Source: a virus
Lineage: Duplodnaviria; Heunggongvirae; Uroviricota; Caudoviricetes
IMG/VR virus record: IMGVR_UViG_2700989545_000014
Strand: one strand, 5' to 3'
Length of the DNA stretch: 11,068 bases
Positions 146-9,840 of this stretch are shown one piece after another. Position numbers and translations under genes: made by a program. The notes beneath the pieces were generated by a model. The model was given only the letters and a program-made list of their open reading frames with translations. It was not told where the DNA came from and ran no database searches. The first letter of the stretch is position 1. The number at the start of each line of letters is the position of its first letter.

Positions 146-250
146 CTAAGGATGAAGCAGAATTCTTCTGCAGCTCCTCCGTATTTCGCATAGTGAACCA
201 GGACTTCTGTTAAACAAAAATTTTTCTGGGATTTTTCCACTCGACTTCAT
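146..250 (-). pseudogene. Degenerate hok/mok-like remnant (upstream leader frame fused to the Hok C-terminal motif, toxin N-terminus deleted)
   Basis: Minus-strand AGGAGG then ATG at 250 gives MKSSGKIPEKFLFNRSPGSLCEIRRSCRRILLHP*. The FLFNR-P segment matches the short frame upstream of the intact hok at 1178..1273 and GSLCEIR matches the Hok core. Relative to 1050..1420 about 130 bp covering the toxin transmembrane codons are absent and the frame shifts after SLCEIR. Confidence 0.35.
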
Positions 251-531
251 TTTTCCTCCTGCAATCCACCAACAGGTACCTGCGCTAATCTATCTTTTTA
301 ATCTGACAACATCTTGGGAAAAGGCAAATTCGTCAGATTTACTGTTTTTCTGCTGCCTCGAATGCCGATGTCTGAAGCACTGATAAGAGTTCTATCTCTT
401 TGATATAGATCTTTTTTTTGATGAATTGCACGACATATTATCGTTATGACACCTTCTTGTTAAAGGTATTGTACTCCTCATCTCGATTTTATGATGTGGG
501 CTATGATTGGTTAGTAATAGAGTGTATCGGT

Positions 532-879: not shown

Positions 880-922
880 CCAAAAAGAAAACCCGCAGTT
901 CTTACGCTGCGGGTTTGTTGTT
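880..922. terminator. Bidirectional rho-independent terminator
   Basis: Stem cccgcag (892-898) / ctgcggg (907-913) with an 8-nt loop. It is flanked by tttgttgtt on the plus strand and ttttcttttt on the minus strand, so it can end both the 532..813 gene and the minus-strand hok transcript. Confidence 0.6.
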
Positions 923-1001
923 CATGTCTGTGAGATAGGGTGCCACTTCAGCCAACCTTAGCAACCGATTGACGGGGGATTGCTCCCCCGTCGCGGTTTC
1001 C

Positions 1002-1142
1002 TTACTGCTTACACTGTAAGAACGCCGCAAACTCCGCTCCCCAGAAGCTCATCCGTATTTCACACAGCGAACCGTGTAGCATCCAGATGATGAGGATTAC
1101 CGTCACGCAGAACGTGATGGCCGTAAGCGATTTTTGCGACAT
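1002..1142 (-). CDS. hok: Hok/Gef-family type I toxin (46 aa membrane peptide)
   Basis: Hand translation of the minus strand gives MSQKSLTAITFCVTVILIIWMLHGSLCEIRMSFWGAEFAAFLQCKQ*. It has an N-terminal hydrophobic helix plus the conserved Hok core SLCEIR and the AAF(L) C-terminal motif seen in Hok, Gef, RelF, PndA and SrnB. AAGGAG lies 8 nt upstream of the ATG. It is absent from the ORF track because it is under 60 aa. Confidence 0.7.
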   Translation of the reverse strand: MSQKSLTAITFCVTVILIIWMLHGSLCEIRMSFWGAEFAAFLQCKQ

Positions 1143-1177
1143 AGCGCTTGCTCCTTTGTTGGAGAGGCGCTAACCTA

Positions 1178-1273
1178 TCACTTGCTTAAGGTAGATATGT
1201 TAGGGCCTCGGTTAAACAGAAATGTTTTCCGGGGCCTTTCCACATCTGGCCTTCGGGTATTCCCTCCGACCAT
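1178..1273 (-). CDS. Short upstream (mok-like) reading frame in the hok leader
   Basis: The 31-codon frame MVGGNTRRPDVERPRKTFLFNRGPNISTLSK* shares the FLFNR-P peptide with the remnant copy at 146..250. Unlike classical mok it stops about 35 nt before the hok start and has no clear Shine-Dalgarno, so its function is uncertain. Confidence 0.25.
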   Translation of the reverse strand: MVGGNTRRPDVERPRKTFLFNRGPNISTLSK

Positions 1274-1333
1274 CAGCCGAAAGGCACCCGCGCGTAATCT
1301 ATCGCTTTTTTGTTACTCCGGCAATTCTGCCTG

Positions 1334-1594
1334 TTAATTCTGAGGTAAAGGCAAACTCATCTGATTGTTTCCCCTGTGTGAAGCTGGCAGCTCATGCCAC
1401 GGGATACCTTCTGAAGAGTGAACGCCGGAGGTGTGTTTTGATGTGAATTTATGGAAAGCTTCCAGTGTTGAGAAGCATACGCCGCATTCCAGGTTGTTAC
1501 ACTGGTAATACTTTTGCCGCACGGTGTTTGAATCATTTTCAGGACGACTGGTGCGGATACGGGCAGATGCGCCACAAAGCGGACAACGGAACAT
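1334..1594 (-). CDS. ogr: Ogr/Delta-family zinc-finger late-gene transcriptional activator (86 aa ORF, C-terminus atypical)
   Basis: The N-terminus MFRCPLCGASARIRTSR...YYQCNNLEC has the CxxC...CxxxxC zinc-finger layout and matches P2 Ogr (MFHCPLC...). AAGGGAGG lies 5 nt upstream of the ATG at 1594. The ORF is longer than P2 Ogr (72 aa) and its last ~28 codons lie in DNA homologous to the hok-like repeat. Confidence 0.8.
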   Translation of the reverse strand: MFRCPLCGASARIRTSRPENDSNTVRQKYYQCNNLECGVCFSTLEAFHKFTSKHTSGVHSSEGIPWHELPASHRGNNQMSLPLPQN

Positions 1595-1636
1595 AGCGAC
1601 CTCCCTTAACGTGGTGCTGCTGCTATTCTAAGTTGC

Positions 1637-2746
1637 TCACTCTGTTTCTGCTATCCATTCCGAGATTTTTGCCTCAAGCTCAAGCTGCGTGGTAAAGCCG
1701 CTGTTATCGATGGTGTGCTCGGCTTTTGCAATAATCCAGTCCTGATTATCAATCTCGCTTTTAAATCCTGTTACCGTGCCATGCATTTCGGGGTAGAGTT
1801 CTGCACGACCACATGCCAGCGTGATGGAGAATGATGCGGCTCCGCGTTGTAGCTGCTGCCACTTTGCCGCCGCTGCGCGTCTTGCTGCCTGCTCGTTCTG
1901 ATAAGTCTTGCGTAACACAAACACATTGCCTTCCGCGCCTTCCATATAATCACCTTCACGGCTGCTGCTTTTCTCCTTTTTGGGTTTTGGCGGTTTACGG
2001 CGTTTCACGCTGACTTTTTTCTTTTTCCCGTAATTAAGATCAAGCCAGTAGGCGCGTACCCCCGTATACGCCTCGCGGTCAGCAATACGGAACTGATGGC
2101 GATCGCCGCTGCTGCGTGTAATGGCGAACGAGGGCAACGGCTGGCCCTGTGCGTTCACGCCACCACCTGGCATGATGAATAACAGATTGCCGCTTTTTAC
2201 CGTGGTGATTGCGCCCAGCATTTCCGCCATGCGCGTAAGGAAGGACATATCGCTTTCTTCGGTCTGGTCGGCGTGGTCGATTTCGATATCCATCAGCATT
2301 TCGCTGATTTGCGGTTTCAGACCGTACCGATGAGCGATGGCAGATACCACGCGCTCAACGGTCACATCATGCCAGGACACCTCACGTTTAACGTTAAATT
2401 CATCCCGAAAATCTGCGCTTCTGGCTGAAACAGTCAGCCTGTCCGGCGGTCCTTCGTGAGCGATTTCATCAACAATGTAAGTGCCTTTTTCTGTCAGCGG
2501 TTCTCCTTTCCAGCCAATGAGAACCGTCAGGCGCGCGCCCCGTGGCGGTAGCTGCAACTGACCATCCGCATCATCCAGCGTGATGGTGAGCTGGTCCGCC
2601 TCAAATCCCCGGTTGTCGGTCAGTGACAGGCTCATCAGGCGCTCTGCCACGCCTGACAGCGTTTTACCCTCCGCGAGAATATCAAAATCCGGCATTTTCA
2701 CGGGGTCTGTGCCCTGACTGAGCAATTGCATGGTGGTATCGGTCAT
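1637..2746 (-). CDS. D: P2 gpD-family tail protein (phage late control gene D protein)
   Basis: The 369-aa product contains SLSLTDNRGFEADQL...LTVLIGWKGEPL, typical of the gpD family. The start is placed at the ATG at 2746 (MTDTTMQLL), which is preceded by GGGAGGG; the track ORF extends to 2878 without a ribosome-binding site. Confidence 0.85.
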   Translation of the reverse strand: MTDTTMQLLSQGTDPVKMPDFDILAEGKTLSGVAERLMSLSLTDNRGFEADQLTITLDDADGQLQLPPRGARLTVLIGWKGEPLTEKGTYIVDEIAHEGPPDRLTVSARSADFRDEFNVKREVSWHDVTVERVVSAIAHRYGLKPQISEMLMDIEIDHADQTEESDMSFLTRMAEMLGAITTVKSGNLLFIMPGGGVNAQGQPLPSFAITRSSGDRHQFRIADREAYTGVRAYWLDLNYGKKKKVSVKRRKPPKPKKEKSSSREGDYMEGAEGNVFVLRKTYQNEQAARRAAAAKWQQLQRGAASFSITLACGRAELYPEMHGTVTGFKSEIDNQDWIIAKAEHTIDNSGFTTQLELEAKISEWIAETE

Positions 2747-2903
2747 CTGTTCCCTCCCTGTGCGGCATGGTCGCATGTGCGTGCGGAGGGGGTTACTGCT
2801 TTTTGTTGTCGCCGTGGCGGGAGAACGGCGCAGGGGTGAGATTACGCACGTGGTGGGTGATGATTGTTGCCGAATCATTTAACGGATACAAGGGGCTGAA
2901 GCT
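2747..2903. promoter_or_regulatory. Divergent intergenic region between D-ogr and the FI operon (expected late promoters)
   Basis: This 157-bp non-coding spacer lies between two divergent starts. By analogy with P2 the FI operon should have an Ogr-dependent promoter here, but no clean TGT-N12-ACA dyad was found by eye. Confidence 0.3.
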
Positions 2904-4088
2904 ATGAGTGAAACTCGTTTTCATGGTGCCCGTGTTACGGAAAATACCGACCTGGTAACAGCGATTAACGATGTTGATTCCAGCGTTATCGGTATCGTGG
3001 CAACGGCGGATGATGCGGACGCGAAGCTGTTCCCGCTGAATAAGCCCACACTGCTGACCCGCGTCAATGACGTGCTGGGAAAATGCGGGACAACGGGGAC
3101 GCTTTATCGTGCGCTTAAGGCCATCGCAGACCAGGTGAGCACAAAGGTGATCGTCGTTCGCGTGGCTGAACACAAAGAAGAAGACGGAAAGACGCAGGAT
3201 CAACTGGTTATCGGTGGTTCTGAGGATGACGGCAGCTATACGGGGATGTATGCGCTGCTTGTTGCAGAGCAGGATGAAAGCATCGGATACCGTCCGCGTA
3301 TTCTGGCCGCGCCGGAGCTGGACACGGAGGCTGTAACAAAATCCCTGTGCGTGATTGCAGGTAAACTGCGCGCGTTTGTGTATGCCTCATGTCACGGCTG
3401 TAACACGATGGCTGAGGCGATTACCTACCGCCAGAAATTCAACGAACGTGAGGTGATGCTCTTATGGCCGGACTTCATCGCCTACAACCCGAAAAGTGGC
3501 AAAAACGAAACGTTCCCCGCGCCTGCTTATGCGTGCGGCCTTCGTGCGTACATTGACCATGAGCAGGGCTGGCACAAATCGCTGTCCAACGTTCCGGTTA
3601 AAAATGTGCTGGGAATGTCCAGGCATGTGTTCTGGTCGTTGCAGGCCGAAGACAGCGATGCCAATAGCCTCAACAACAAAGAAATCACGACCATTATTCG
3701 TCGCAACGGGTTCCGCTTCTGGGGCAACCGCACACCGGAAACGAACGCCTACATCTTTGAGGTGTATACCCGAACCGCACAGGTGCTGGCTGATTCAATT
3801 GCGGAAGCGCAGTTTGAAACCATCGACAGTCCACTGACACCTGCGAATGTGAAGGATGTTATCAGCGCCATCAGGGCAAAACTGGATTCGCTGGTTACTG
3901 CCGGGAAACTGATTGGTGCGGAGTGCTGGTATGACGTGGTGGATAACGGCACCACGAATTTACGTCAGGGACGTGTGCGTATTCGCTACAAATATACGCC
4001 TGTTCCCCCGCTGGAAGACATGGAGCTTTACCAGACGTTTACTGATGAATTCTTTGGTCCCGCATTTGCGGTGCTGGGAGGTGCCTGA
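2904..4088 (+). CDS. FI: Contractile tail sheath protein (P2 gpFI family)
   Basis: The 394-aa product aligns by eye with P2 FI along its length (FPLNKP, KLRAF, AYRQ-F, WPDF, EQGWHK-LSNV, IRRNGFRFWGNRT, YTRTAQV, YTPVPPLE). AAGGGG lies 7 nt upstream of the ATG. Confidence 0.9.
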   Translation: MSETRFHGARVTENTDLVTAINDVDSSVIGIVATADDADAKLFPLNKPTLLTRVNDVLGKCGTTGTLYRALKAIADQVSTKVIVVRVAEHKEEDGKTQDQLVIGGSEDDGSYTGMYALLVAEQDESIGYRPRILAAPELDTEAVTKSLCVIAGKLRAFVYASCHGCNTMAEAITYRQKFNEREVMLLWPDFIAYNPKSGKNETFPAPAYACGLRAYIDHEQGWHKSLSNVPVKNVLGMSRHVFWSLQAEDSDANSLNNKEITTIIRRNGFRFWGNRTPETNAYIFEVYTRTAQVLADSIAEAQFETIDSPLTPANVKDVISAIRAKLDSLVTAGKLIGAECWYDVVDNGTTNLRQGRVRIRYKYTPVPPLEDMELYQTFTDEFFGPAFAVLGGA

Positions 4089-8594: not shown

Positions 8595-8645
8595 CTCTTA
8601 ACCTTATAACATGTGTGGTCTGAAATAATAATTAAGGAGATTATC

Positions 8646-9218
8646 GTGCTGTCTTACCTAATGGCAATTCACTTTGTTTTATTTGGGAACTCTACTAATT
8701 TAAAAAACTTCTGGAAACATGAAGTAATTCGGCGGAAACGTATGGATATCTGGAGGCTTTTAAGAGAGAAAAAGCAGCGTAACAGGAATTTCCTTTTCTG
8801 GTGGCGGTTGGCTAACGAAATGTATATTAATGGTAATAAATTACATAAGAAAGCAGCCAAGAAGTTAAACAGTAAAATAATTAACAAATTTGGTTGCGAA
8901 ATTGGATTGGGCGCAAATATTGGAAAAGGGTTAACAATTCCCCATCATGCTGGAATTGTTGTTCATTTTGCTGTTGATGCTGGTGAAAATCTGGTGTTAC
9001 GACAGAATACGACCATTGGACAGATAGATGGTGACATACCTGGTTCAAGAGTAAAAATTGGTAGCAACGTTGATATCGGAGCTAATTGTTGCATCATTGG
9101 ATTATCCCGTAAAATTGGGGATAATGTAAAAATAGGTGCAATGTCTTTTATAAATAAAGATATACCATCGAACTGCACATATATAACTAAAAAGAGCGGT
9201 GCTGTATTGTATAAATAG
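8646..9218 (+). CDS. Hexapeptide-repeat (left-handed beta-helix) O-acetyltransferase of the CysE/WcaB/NodL type, prophage cargo (moron) gene
   Basis: The C-terminal two-thirds shows imperfect hexapeptide repeats (GCEIGLGANIGKGLTIPHHAGIVV...VKIGSNVDIGANCCIIG...IGDNVKIGAMSFI) resembling serine and polysaccharide O-acetyltransferases. The start is placed at GTG 8646, 6 nt after AAGGAG; the track frame opens at 8613. The gene is far more AT-rich than the flanking phage genes. Confidence 0.7.
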   Translation: MLSYLMAIHFVLFGNSTNLKNFWKHEVIRRKRMDIWRLLREKKQRNRNFLFWWRLANEMYINGNKLHKKAAKKLNSKIINKFGCEIGLGANIGKGLTIPHHAGIVVHFAVDAGENLVLRQNTTIGQIDGDIPGSRVKIGSNVDIGANCCIIGLSRKIGDNVKIGAMSFINKDIPSNCTYITKKSGAVLYK

Positions 9219-9226
9219 AGTACATA

Positions 9227-9263
9227 AAGCCATCGATATTTCTATCGATGGCTTTTTCTTTTT
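9227..9263. terminator. Strong rho-independent terminator after the cargo gene
   Basis: A 12-bp stem aagccatcgata / tatcgatggctt with loop tttc is followed by tttttcttttt on the plus strand. The tfa stop codon lies at the edge of this element. Confidence 0.7.
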
Positions 9264-9840
9264 ATTGTGGGGCGACTGGCCACTCAATATCTGCTGCTAC
9301 TGTTGTATCAACACGATGCAACAATACTCGATATGTCTTCCATGCAGCCAGTAACGATGTCTCTTCCTCCGTCGCAATATCTAAATCTATAGCATCCTGA
9401 AGTGGTGCAATATGCTCACTGGCTACCTGCATCAGGCTGTTTTTTGTTTCTTCCGCCTCCCTTATCCGAAATAGTTTTTCTGCTTCTGCATCTTTCACCC
9501 AGGATGTGCCGTTCCACTTCTGATACTCTCCATACGGCGACAACCAGGTAACATTTTCCGGTAACGGACCGAGTTCAGAAATAAATAACGAGTCCCCTGA
9601 TGCCACGTCATAAACCGTTTTACCCCGATGGTCTTCAACGAGATGCCACGATGCCTCATCACTGTTGAAAACGGCCACGAAGCCAGCCGGAATATCTGGC
9701 GGGGCAATATCGGTACTGTTTGCAGGCAGACCTGTATGAGGTGAAATGTATGCATCACCTTCACCAATAAACTCATTGGTTCCGGTCAGTAGATTATAAA
9801 TTTTTATGGTCCGTGATTGTTCACTCATTCTGAATGTCAT
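9262..9840 (-). CDS. tfa: Tail fibre assembly protein (lambda Tfa / P2 gpG family)
   Basis: The 192-aa product ([18 protein letters not shown]...[20 protein letters not shown]...) closely resembles, from memory, the TfaR/TfaQ-type chaperones of E. coli lambdoid prophages. Its ATG overlaps the stop of the upstream fibre segment (TAATG). Confidence 0.9.

Follow-up and report, generated by a model that had tools for sequence, protein, structure and literature searches.

Whether a 46-codon reading frame within an Escherichia coli prophage belongs to a functional toxin-antitoxin locus, and how its toxin could be held in check when no upstream frame with a start codon reaches the toxin start, are the two questions raised by the DNA analyzed here. 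The window, by which we mean the whole stretch of 11,068 nucleotides (IMG/VR record IMGVR_UViG_2700989545_000014), was examined for the toxin gene, its genomic setting, its messenger RNA and a putative antisense RNA. The reading that we prefer, with a probability of roughly 80%, is that the frame forms part of a type I toxin-antitoxin locus of the hok/sok type within Hok cluster 72, carried as prophage cargo at leuZ and operated by a switch of the kind proposed below.

The toxin gene is encoded on the minus strand.

1002..1142, minus strand: hok coding sequence, 46 aa, predicted Hok/Gef-family inner-membrane toxin of cluster 72

The translation of this frame is MSQKSLTAITFCVTVILIIWMLHGSLCEIRMSFWGAEFAAFLQCKQ. 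It is preceded by the ribosome-binding site AAAGGAG, with GGAG at positions 1154-1151 and a spacer of 8 nt to the ATG, which confirms the 46-codon frame and the ribosome-binding site described in the first-pass annotation. The Hok-like character that had been ascribed to the peptide was borne out by the Pfam profile HOK_GEF (PF01848), which scored 30.1 bits against a gathering score of 22 (E-value 3.7e-7) and aligned residues 7-44 to profile positions 5-42 of 42, and by phrog_251, which matched over the full length (82.8 bits, E-value 2.5e-23). Alignment to a Hok/Gef profile had been suggested as a check on the assignment, and that alignment is thus significant. The residues conserved in Hok proteins are kept in the window peptide (C12, T14, L26, C27, E28 and E37, which align with C16, T18, L30, C31, E32 and E41 in R1 numbering), and the expected N-terminal hydrophobic helix and a Cys near the C-terminus (C44) are present as well. 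The closest classical Hok by sequence is HokA from the chromosome of E. coli K-12, with 43% identity to the window peptide and a genomic site different from that of the window locus. The HokA equivalog model NF007290 was also the best match in NCBIfam, with a score of 35.8 bits against a cut-off of 89, and the window peptide is therefore not HokA; it fell far below the cut-offs of the NCBIfam Hok models.

Could the frame be a chance short frame in a non-coding spacer, with a spurious resemblance to Hok? Its small size and the modest Pfam E-value are all that speak for this, whereas the Pfam score lies above the curated threshold, the PHROG match spans the whole peptide, the coding frame has been kept, most changes among close relatives being synonymous, the upstream leader shares homology with those of hok genes, and toxicity has been demonstrated for close variants (bioRxiv 10.1101/2025.08.07.668861). 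The results from Pfam, PHROG, the Rfam model RF01794 and the loci retrieved by their leaders, of which 73 of 74 have an intact Hok frame (see below), refute a chance origin, and we regard its probability as negligible. Judged by its sequence, the small gene is a true Hok-family membrane toxin gene, and the exact peptide that it encodes is predicted to be toxic.

The locus had been presented as unannotated, which does not hold. An identical sequence is available in RefSeq as the Hok/Gef family protein WP_000078920.1, the identical DNA in E. coli 55989 and other strains carries a Hok/Gef family protein annotation, and a hok/gef protein is annotated in the record of phage P88. The 431-bp locus family was found in 1545 of 5426 complete E. 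coli genomes (~28%), with at most 7 copies per genome and 1984 E. coli copies in total, and on 34 plasmids as well; a Hok/Gef annotation was present in every row covering the gene in a sample from the 1545 genomes. Hok cluster 72 was classed as abundant in a 2026 preprint, in which 42 of 45 Hok homologues were toxic upon arabinose induction (Escalera-Maurer et al., bioRxiv 10.1101/2025.08.07.668861). The toxic homologues include two members of cluster 72, 72_1621 (sequence in Table S2 of the preprint) and 72_1589, neither of which is among the three reported to be non-toxic. The first of these is one residue off the window peptide (V15A), so that the tested construct is 72_1621 and not the exact peptide, while the second, the Stx-phage form, has 76% identity to it. 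The ribosome-binding site GGAGC is the same in the window locus and as given for 72_1621. Mok, Sok and the mRNA structure were left out of that preprint, which is hence without the leader features described here. The locus is of an already known kind and is a known member of it, and there is nothing new in it as a toxin discovery.

The genomic setting was resolved by comparison to sequenced strains. Over positions 1-1700, the window has 99.9-100% identity to E. coli 55989 and to numerous further strains. Its DNA is part of an E. coli chromosome, and its positions 1-62 correspond to the 3′ external transcribed spacer of the tRNA leuZ (3′ETS-leuZ), the same as in K-12. The latter strain represents the empty site, with yecA located directly after 3′ETS-leuZ. 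The attachment core, which consists of the 3′ part of leuZ and 3′ETS-leuZ, ends at window position 62 and is repeated in E. coli 55989 beside the phage integrase, on the yecA side. Since 55989 has a copy of the core at either end of the prophage, the prophage begins at position 63. The first-pass annotation had the toxin locus directly abutting the prophage end, but the hok locus (884-1324) is situated ~820 bp inside. Positions 882-3708, with gpD, ogr and the hok locus, share 98% identity with Escherichia phage P88 (Peduoviridae, Xuanwuvirus), and the similarity to P88 ends at 881/882. The hok locus is thus located both between the attachment repeats and within a sequenced phage genome, as an accessory element that a P88-like, P2-family prophage at leuZ carries between ogr and its right attachment site.

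For the segment at 63-881, no nucleotide match was obtained in phage records. A bacterial origin of this DNA, by which hok would come to lie at the prophage edge, is ruled out by the duplication of the attachment core and the empty site in K-12. The segment always accompanies a P2-like prophage at leuZ (618 genomes), and it holds a 93-aa reading frame that matches phrog_27544 and has no similarity to the P88 reading frame at the equivalent place. A decayed second copy of ogr′-hok′ was observed at 172-339, 700 bp from the hok locus.

Another prophage-borne system has been studied experimentally. [quoted passage not shown] By analogy, hokW-sokW is a plausible functional counterpart of the window locus, although HokW has 51 aa, belongs to HokD cluster 35 and is only 30% identical to the window peptide. 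We considered whether a Stx-phage locus that is 84% identical to the window locus might be hokW-sokW itself, and rejected this because the primers and the peptide given in PMC8621323 show HokW to be a different, 51-aa toxin. The 84%-identical homologue represents a further hok locus of Stx2a phages, distinct from hokW-sokW. The label "MokW-like" that is found on phage P88 is the name of a PHROG family only.

We then turned to the RNA that would be transcribed from the minus strand, for which the following elements were delineated (nt refers to positions in the mRNA).

1296..1324, minus strand: putative hok promoter as read from the sequence, -35 TTGCCG (1324-1319), 17-nt spacer, -10 TAGATT (1301-1296)
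1275..1289, minus strand: tac-like mRNA 5′ end, nt 1-15, GGGUGCCUUUCGGCU, from the minimum free energy (MFE) and centroid folds
1177..1192, minus strand: Sok-target region, nt 98-113, ACCUUAAGCAAGUGAU, which holds a YUNR-type CUUA
1142..1172, minus strand: hairpin over the hok ribosome-binding site, nt 118-148, -13.4 kcal/mol, z -4.6
971..992, minus strand: 9-bp GC hairpin in the 3′UTR, GACGGGGGA-GCAA-UCCCCCGUC, -19.7 kcal/mol, z -4.6
955..969, minus strand: 3′UTR element, AUCGGUUGCUAAGGU, predicted to pair with the Sok-target region and to mimic the 5′ tail of Sok
938..953, minus strand: fbi-like element, GGCUGAAGUGGCACCC, predicted to pair with the tac-like 5′ end
884..916, minus strand: intrinsic terminator of the hok mRNA, stem 916-889, T-run to ~884, bidirectional in shape

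The transcription start was set at 1289, the first position matched by the Rfam model and in agreement with R1 homology, which is 7 nt after the conserved TAGATT. The putative promoter is located just downstream of the ogr stop codon (1334-1336). It matches the consensus at 8 of 12 positions, and a promoter scan at its threshold reported no sigma-70-like site; the -10 hexamer and the adjoining GCGGGTGCC are conserved in the homologues from Stx phages, E. albertii and Citrobacter. Both the 9-bp GC hairpin at 971-992 and the terminator that had been placed at 880-922 were recovered, the latter as the intrinsic terminator at 916-889 with its T-run. The terminator is the last sequence in common with phage P88, and terminator-like sites in the region numbered 4, as compared to 0.7 expected. 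The motif GGCACCC of the fbi-like element is present in all homologues that extend there, with isolated one-base changes.

The 147-nt leader upstream of the toxin frame was matched end to end by the Rfam hok-leader model RF01794 (model positions 1-157, 47.9 bits, E-value 3.3e-9), which is built on the hok leader strand and also aligned on the hok strand here, though the gathering score of 59 was not reached. By sequence, the window leader is homologous to hok leaders, outside the curated threshold of the model.

The ~405-nt transcript is predicted to fold like the hok mRNA of plasmid R1, and this fold is backed by covariation across 41 relatives. The MFE of the 406-nt RNA starting at 1289 was -178.1 kcal/mol (z -8.6). 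In the MFE and centroid folds alike, nt 1-15 are predicted to pair with nt 337-352 in a tac/fbi helix (helix 1), which was 94% paired in the 41 sequences. The Sok-target region at nt 98-113 pairs with nt 321-335 of the 3′UTR (helix 6), where compensatory changes were found in 5 pairs. The hairpin over the ribosome-binding site (helix 7), in which an anti-SD CUCC pairs with GGAG at 1154-1151 and a lower stem AGCGC/GCGCU extends up to the base before the AUG, was 95% paired in the 41 sequences, and the GC hairpin (helix 16) had compensatory changes in 3 pairs across the relatives. Over the whole fold, 94.6% of the cells in the alignment of the 41 non-redundant homologues were paired, as compared to 38-45% with slid partners. 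Compensatory changes were seen in 25 pairs, as compared to 9-15 with slid partners, and the observed value was reached in none of 500 shuffles.

Cutting the RNA at nt 322, just past the GC hairpin, is predicted to make the 5′ end fold locally, so that nt 1-15 would pair with nt 19-35 in the nascent or truncated RNA instead of with the 3′ fbi-like element as in the full-length RNA. At the same time, the unpaired probability of nt 103-108 rises from 0.0-0.5 in the full-length RNA to 0.74-0.96. The same logic has been described for R1, where Sok and the 3′ end of the mRNA compete for the target and the mRNA is activated by truncation (PMC9841398). The title of a paper from 1994 by Thisted and coworkers is reportedly in line with this. 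The GC hairpin at 971-992 is likely to be the protective 3′ stem-loop of the processed, translatable mRNA, by analogy with the truncated hok mRNA of R1 (PMC9841398). The SD sequence is paired with a probability of ~1.0 in the full-length and the truncated RNA alike. No support was obtained for a simple switch in structure by which the ribosome-binding site would be set free: an enforced R1-style sokT hairpin (nt 81-126) costs 6 kcal/mol in the truncated RNA, and it still leaves the SD partly paired.

Two features on the plus strand are candidates for the antitoxin part of the locus.

1148..1176, plus strand: putative Sok promoter, -35 TTGCTC (1148-1153), 17-nt spacer, -10 TAACCT (1171-1176)
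1181..1243, plus strand: predicted Sok-like RNA, ~60-65 nt, complementary to hok mRNA nt 47-109, with estimated ends

The -35 hexamer of the putative Sok promoter lies opposite the hok ribosome-binding site, which we take to be the position of the sok promoter also in R1. The R1 coordinates given in PMC9841398 are consistent with this placement. The complement of the -10 hexamer (AGGUUA, nt 114-119) is invariant in the 41 sequences; the match to the consensus is weak, 6 of 12 positions, and was not picked up by the promoter scan. The candidate RNA would begin with an unpaired 5′ tail and continue with a GC-rich hairpin, GGGCCUCGG...CCGGGGCC(U), and then UUUCC; its predicted folding energy lies between -22.7 and -25.3 kcal/mol (z -3.4 to -4.3). 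Its start would be 38-42 nt upstream of the hok ATG, as compared to 48-49 nt for the annotated sokB and sokC of K-12. An mRNA of ~400 nt and an antisense RNA from the plus strand are consistent with the predicted fold and with the homology to R1.

We compared these features to the hok/sok (parB) locus of plasmid R1, which encodes a toxin of the same Hok fold class with 30% identity to the window peptide. By its predicted structure, the window locus would share with R1 an mRNA of ~400 nt with tac/fbi pairing of its ends, a 3′ end that competes with Sok and a protective 3′ hairpin after processing, and its putative sok promoter lies opposite the hok ribosome-binding site, as in R1. The distance from the GAGG-containing target hairpin to the hok AUG is also the same (67 nt in the window and 69 nt in R1). 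The R1 locus resides on a plasmid and the window locus on a prophage. The main difference concerns mok: the 70-codon mok gene of R1 starts from an AUG at 116-118 inside the Sok target and overlaps hok, whereas no frame with a start in the window reaches the hok start. Two upstream frames need to be considered in this context.

1178..1273, minus strand: 31-codon ORF, termed mok-like in the first-pass annotation, with an AUG at nt 17 inside the 5′ tac stem and without a ribosome-binding site
1186..1245, minus strand: upstream ORF in the mok-equivalent frame, AUG at nt 45 (window 1245), 19 codons MWKGPGKHFCLTEALTYLP, UAA at nt 102-104 (1188-1186)

The observation that the upstream frame ends before the toxin start is correct, and both upstream frames on this strand stop before the hok ATG. 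The 31-codon frame is not the positional equivalent of mok, since it starts in the tac stem and has no ribosome-binding site, and it is probably not translated. The suspicion that the regulation may differ from R1 was thus reasonable, there being no overlapping frame with a start codon, although it rested on the wrong ORF. Past the UAA at nt 102-104, the mok-equivalent frame is open for 42 codons across the hok start, without a start codon, and the position equivalent to the R1 mok AUG (116-118) is an AUA at nt 92-94. No frame started by ATG, GTG or TTG runs across the hok start in the window. A mini-ORF in the target loop, GUG-AUA-GGU-UAG, was discarded as it is not conserved, the Stx homologue having GUA.

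Related leaders were examined for the state of the mok-like frame. Among 87 unique leaders, 34 had the frame uninterrupted from a start codon further upstream and 53 had it closed (open ~40%), and 65 of the 87 had no start codon within 19 nt after GAGGC, where R1 has one. The mok-equivalent frame reads through the hok start in some of the relatives. As controls, mokB and mokC of K-12 are annotated with starts under sokB and sokC. A comparison of synonymous to non-synonymous changes (10:1 for open and 26:26 for closed frames) was not relied on, since that set had been picked by protein identity, and a leader-anchored sample was used in place of the protein-retrieved set. Of the 74 loci that were retrieved by their leaders alone, 73 had an intact Hok ORF, with the frame either open or closed, and the hairpin over the ribosome-binding site was equally stable in the two groups (-13.2 kcal/mol for open and -13.7 kcal/mol for closed variants). 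Since the state of the frame is unrelated to the intactness of Hok and to the stability of the hairpin, the overlapping frame does not look selected in the cluster 72 subfamily, as far as the sequences tell.

These data bear on the main rival to our reading, which states that the locus is structurally intact and translationally silent. With the mok-equivalent frame shut by the UAA at nt 102-104, no ribosome would open the hairpin over the hok ribosome-binding site, and the toxin gene would be a relic of recent date, carried along by the prophage. In K-12, the hok loci on the chromosome are largely inactive, as reportedly found by Pedersen and Gerdes in 1999. Consistent with silence are also the ~100% pairing of the SD in both predicted RNA forms, the closure of the frame in 53 of the 87 leaders and the clearly decayed copy at 172-339, 700 bp off. 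Moreover, stop codons in the mok gene of R1 upstream of the hok start abolish Hok translation (PMC9841398). Against a silent locus, on the other hand, speak the intact Hok ORF in 73 of the 74 leader-anchored loci, which include quite divergent proteins with open as well as closed frames, the retention of all RNA elements with compensatory changes, and the equal stability of the hairpin in open and closed variants. Also, the frame is open about as often as by chance, a rough estimate for 34 codons free of stops being (61/64)^34, or ~0.2, which suggests that it was never under selection in the subfamily, rather than recently lost. We consider a silent locus to be unlikely, while giving it more weight than any other rival.

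A second possibility is that the 19-codon ORF (AUG at nt 45, window 1245-1186) encodes a functional leader peptide that provides a shortened form of mok coupling. Sok would block this ORF, and termination at nt 104 would aid initiation at the distant hok start through re-initiation or remodelling of the structure. The AUG at nt 45 is present in nearly all relatives with AAGG 5 nt upstream, the ORF is in the same frame relative to hok as mok in R1, and Sok would cover it from the third nucleotide on. The AUG is, though, predicted to be base-paired in both RNA forms (unpaired probability 0.04), its conservation is accounted for by the overlapping terminator hairpin of Sok, and it is missing in the homologues from Citrobacter and S. 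diarizonae. Nor is the position of the stop kept among the relatives, where it lies 27 to 68 nt ahead of the hok ATG or gives way to read-through, and in the window it is 14 nt upstream of the base of the hairpin. A leader peptide is a weaker explanation than a silent locus, and we think it rather improbable.

The sequences show that the peptide belongs to the Hok family, that its leader is homologous to hok leaders and that the fold is conserved with covariation, whereas the transcript ends, the promoters, the 3′ processing, the action of Sok and the biological role are inferred. A working hok/sok-type locus, which we favor, would operate as follows. The mRNA of ~405 nt, extending on the minus strand from 1289 to ~884, would be made constitutively and would be closed and inert, with the 5′ end paired to the 3′ fbi-like element, the 3′UTR covering the antisense target and the ribosome-binding site held in a local hairpin. 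Slow trimming of the 3′ end back to the GC hairpin would free the 5′ end and expose the target. A short and unstable Sok-like RNA from the plus strand (~1181-1243) would then bind the target and silence the mRNA. Should Sok run out because the element is lost, transcription is shut off or the prophage is induced, Hok would be made and inserted into the inner membrane, and the cell would be depolarized or killed. With no start-bearing frame across the hok start, Sok would probably work without being coupled to mok, through decay mediated by RNase III or by denying ribosomes access upstream of the structured start. This is the least certain step. Translation of Hok from the native mRNA without a mok frame is put in doubt by R1, in which mok has to be translated as far as the hok ribosome-binding site (PMC9841398), and by the prediction that the hok ribosome-binding site stays paired even in the truncated RNA. 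The biological role may lie in prophage retention, in the exclusion of other phages or in help with lysis.

A possible model for the action of Sok without mok is the standby-site control of tisB/IstR-1, which is an analogy only and implies no sequence relationship. In that system, studied by Darfeuille and coworkers in 2007, the toxin start is reportedly structured, the antisense RNA is said to bind well upstream of it, and the mRNA to be activated by 5′ or 3′ processing. No description of mok-less hok loci was found in the searchable literature, in which subscription papers are poorly covered, so that this is weak evidence of absence. What novelty remains would be limited to the unselected mok frame in cluster 72 and to the possibility of mok-independent control. 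We tentatively suggest, as an idea that is more doubtful than the assignment of the locus itself, that the cluster 72 hok loci, which are present in ~28% of the complete E. coli genomes and mostly in P2-like and Stx prophages, may represent a natural mok-less branch of hok/sok in which Sok acts uncoupled on a toxin with a permanently sequestered ribosome-binding site. Sok would in that case block the ribosome standby region just 5′ of the hairpin, or act purely by RNase III-dependent decay.

For annotation, the hok gene in the window is a reminder that an ORF track with a floor of 60 aa hides type I toxins. If the suggestion of a mok-less branch is true, a large natural subfamily would do without the overlapping mok frame, which is treated as an integral third gene in the R1 paradigm. 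As judged from the predicted structures, the mok frame is the only element of the R1 hok mRNA that this subfamily does not keep, and the subfamily may therefore offer a handy natural means of testing whether control by Sok requires coupling to mok. It would also be a test of what hok does for a P2-like prophage, whether retention, phage exclusion or the timing of lysis as in hokW-sokW.

The attachment core of the prophage consists of the 3' end portion of the tRNA gene leuZ and of nucleotides 1-62, which contain the 3'ETS-leuZ small RNA region and its terminator with the same sequence as in K-12. A duplicate of this core adjoins the integrase in E. coli 55989. Nearby, on the minus strand at 172-339, is a decayed second copy of the ogr-hok module, of which three segments are recognizable:

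312-339, minus strand: 3' end of ogr, similar to 1339-1366
200-299, minus strand: hok promoter and leader, 72% identical to 1202-1310
172-199, minus strand: middle part of hok, matching 1046-1073

About 128 nt have been deleted internally from this copy, which has thereby lost its N-terminal codons along with the ribosome-binding site and Sok target. The decayed copy suggests that a previous P2-like right end was located at the same site, either in tandem or recombined.

An ORF of 93 aa is located on the plus strand at 532-813, between the attachment core and hok; it has an apparent signal sequence at its N-terminus, and its sole annotation is as a hypothetical protein. The ORF matches the protein family phrog_27544 (E 7e-58), no nucleotide match to it was found in a search of 50,697 phage records, and the ORF at the equivalent position in Escherichia phage P88 is not similar to it.

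The mechanically called ORF for gpD (1637-2878, minus strand) encodes 413 aa, a long N-terminal extension included; gpD of P88 has about 366 aa. The annotation of this region in 55989 lists a 266-aa product and an opposite-strand fragment labelled as a pseudogene, which suggests a frameshift or inconsistent start calling in that record. The ORF at 8613-9218 (plus strand), the positional counterpart of which is annotated as a serine acetyltransferase in 55989, is located among the tail genes on the strand opposite to its neighbours. It is likely to be a cargo gene, possibly with a role in O-antigen or surface modification. The Rfam family IS009 was matched over its full length at 9299-9497 on the minus strand (177 bits, gathering score 117). 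Because this match is located entirely inside the tail-fibre-assembly ORF (9262-9840, minus strand), the IS009 "sRNA family" may be nothing more than a stretch of coding sequence conserved among P2-like phages.

A second hok locus, encoding 46 aa (cluster 72_1589), was identified at around 50.6 kb in Stx2a-converting phages (homologous locus L003, 1445-1855; phage matches H33-H40). This locus is 84% identical to that in the window, is separate from the characterised hokW-sokW, and is not annotated in many GenBank records of Stx2a phages (LC6454xx). Many prophage predictions in IMG/VR (L019, L024, L027 and others) end exactly 3 nt past the final hok codon, and automated prophage boundaries therefore commonly exclude the hok 3'UTR, with its fbi element and terminator, as well as the rest of the right end.
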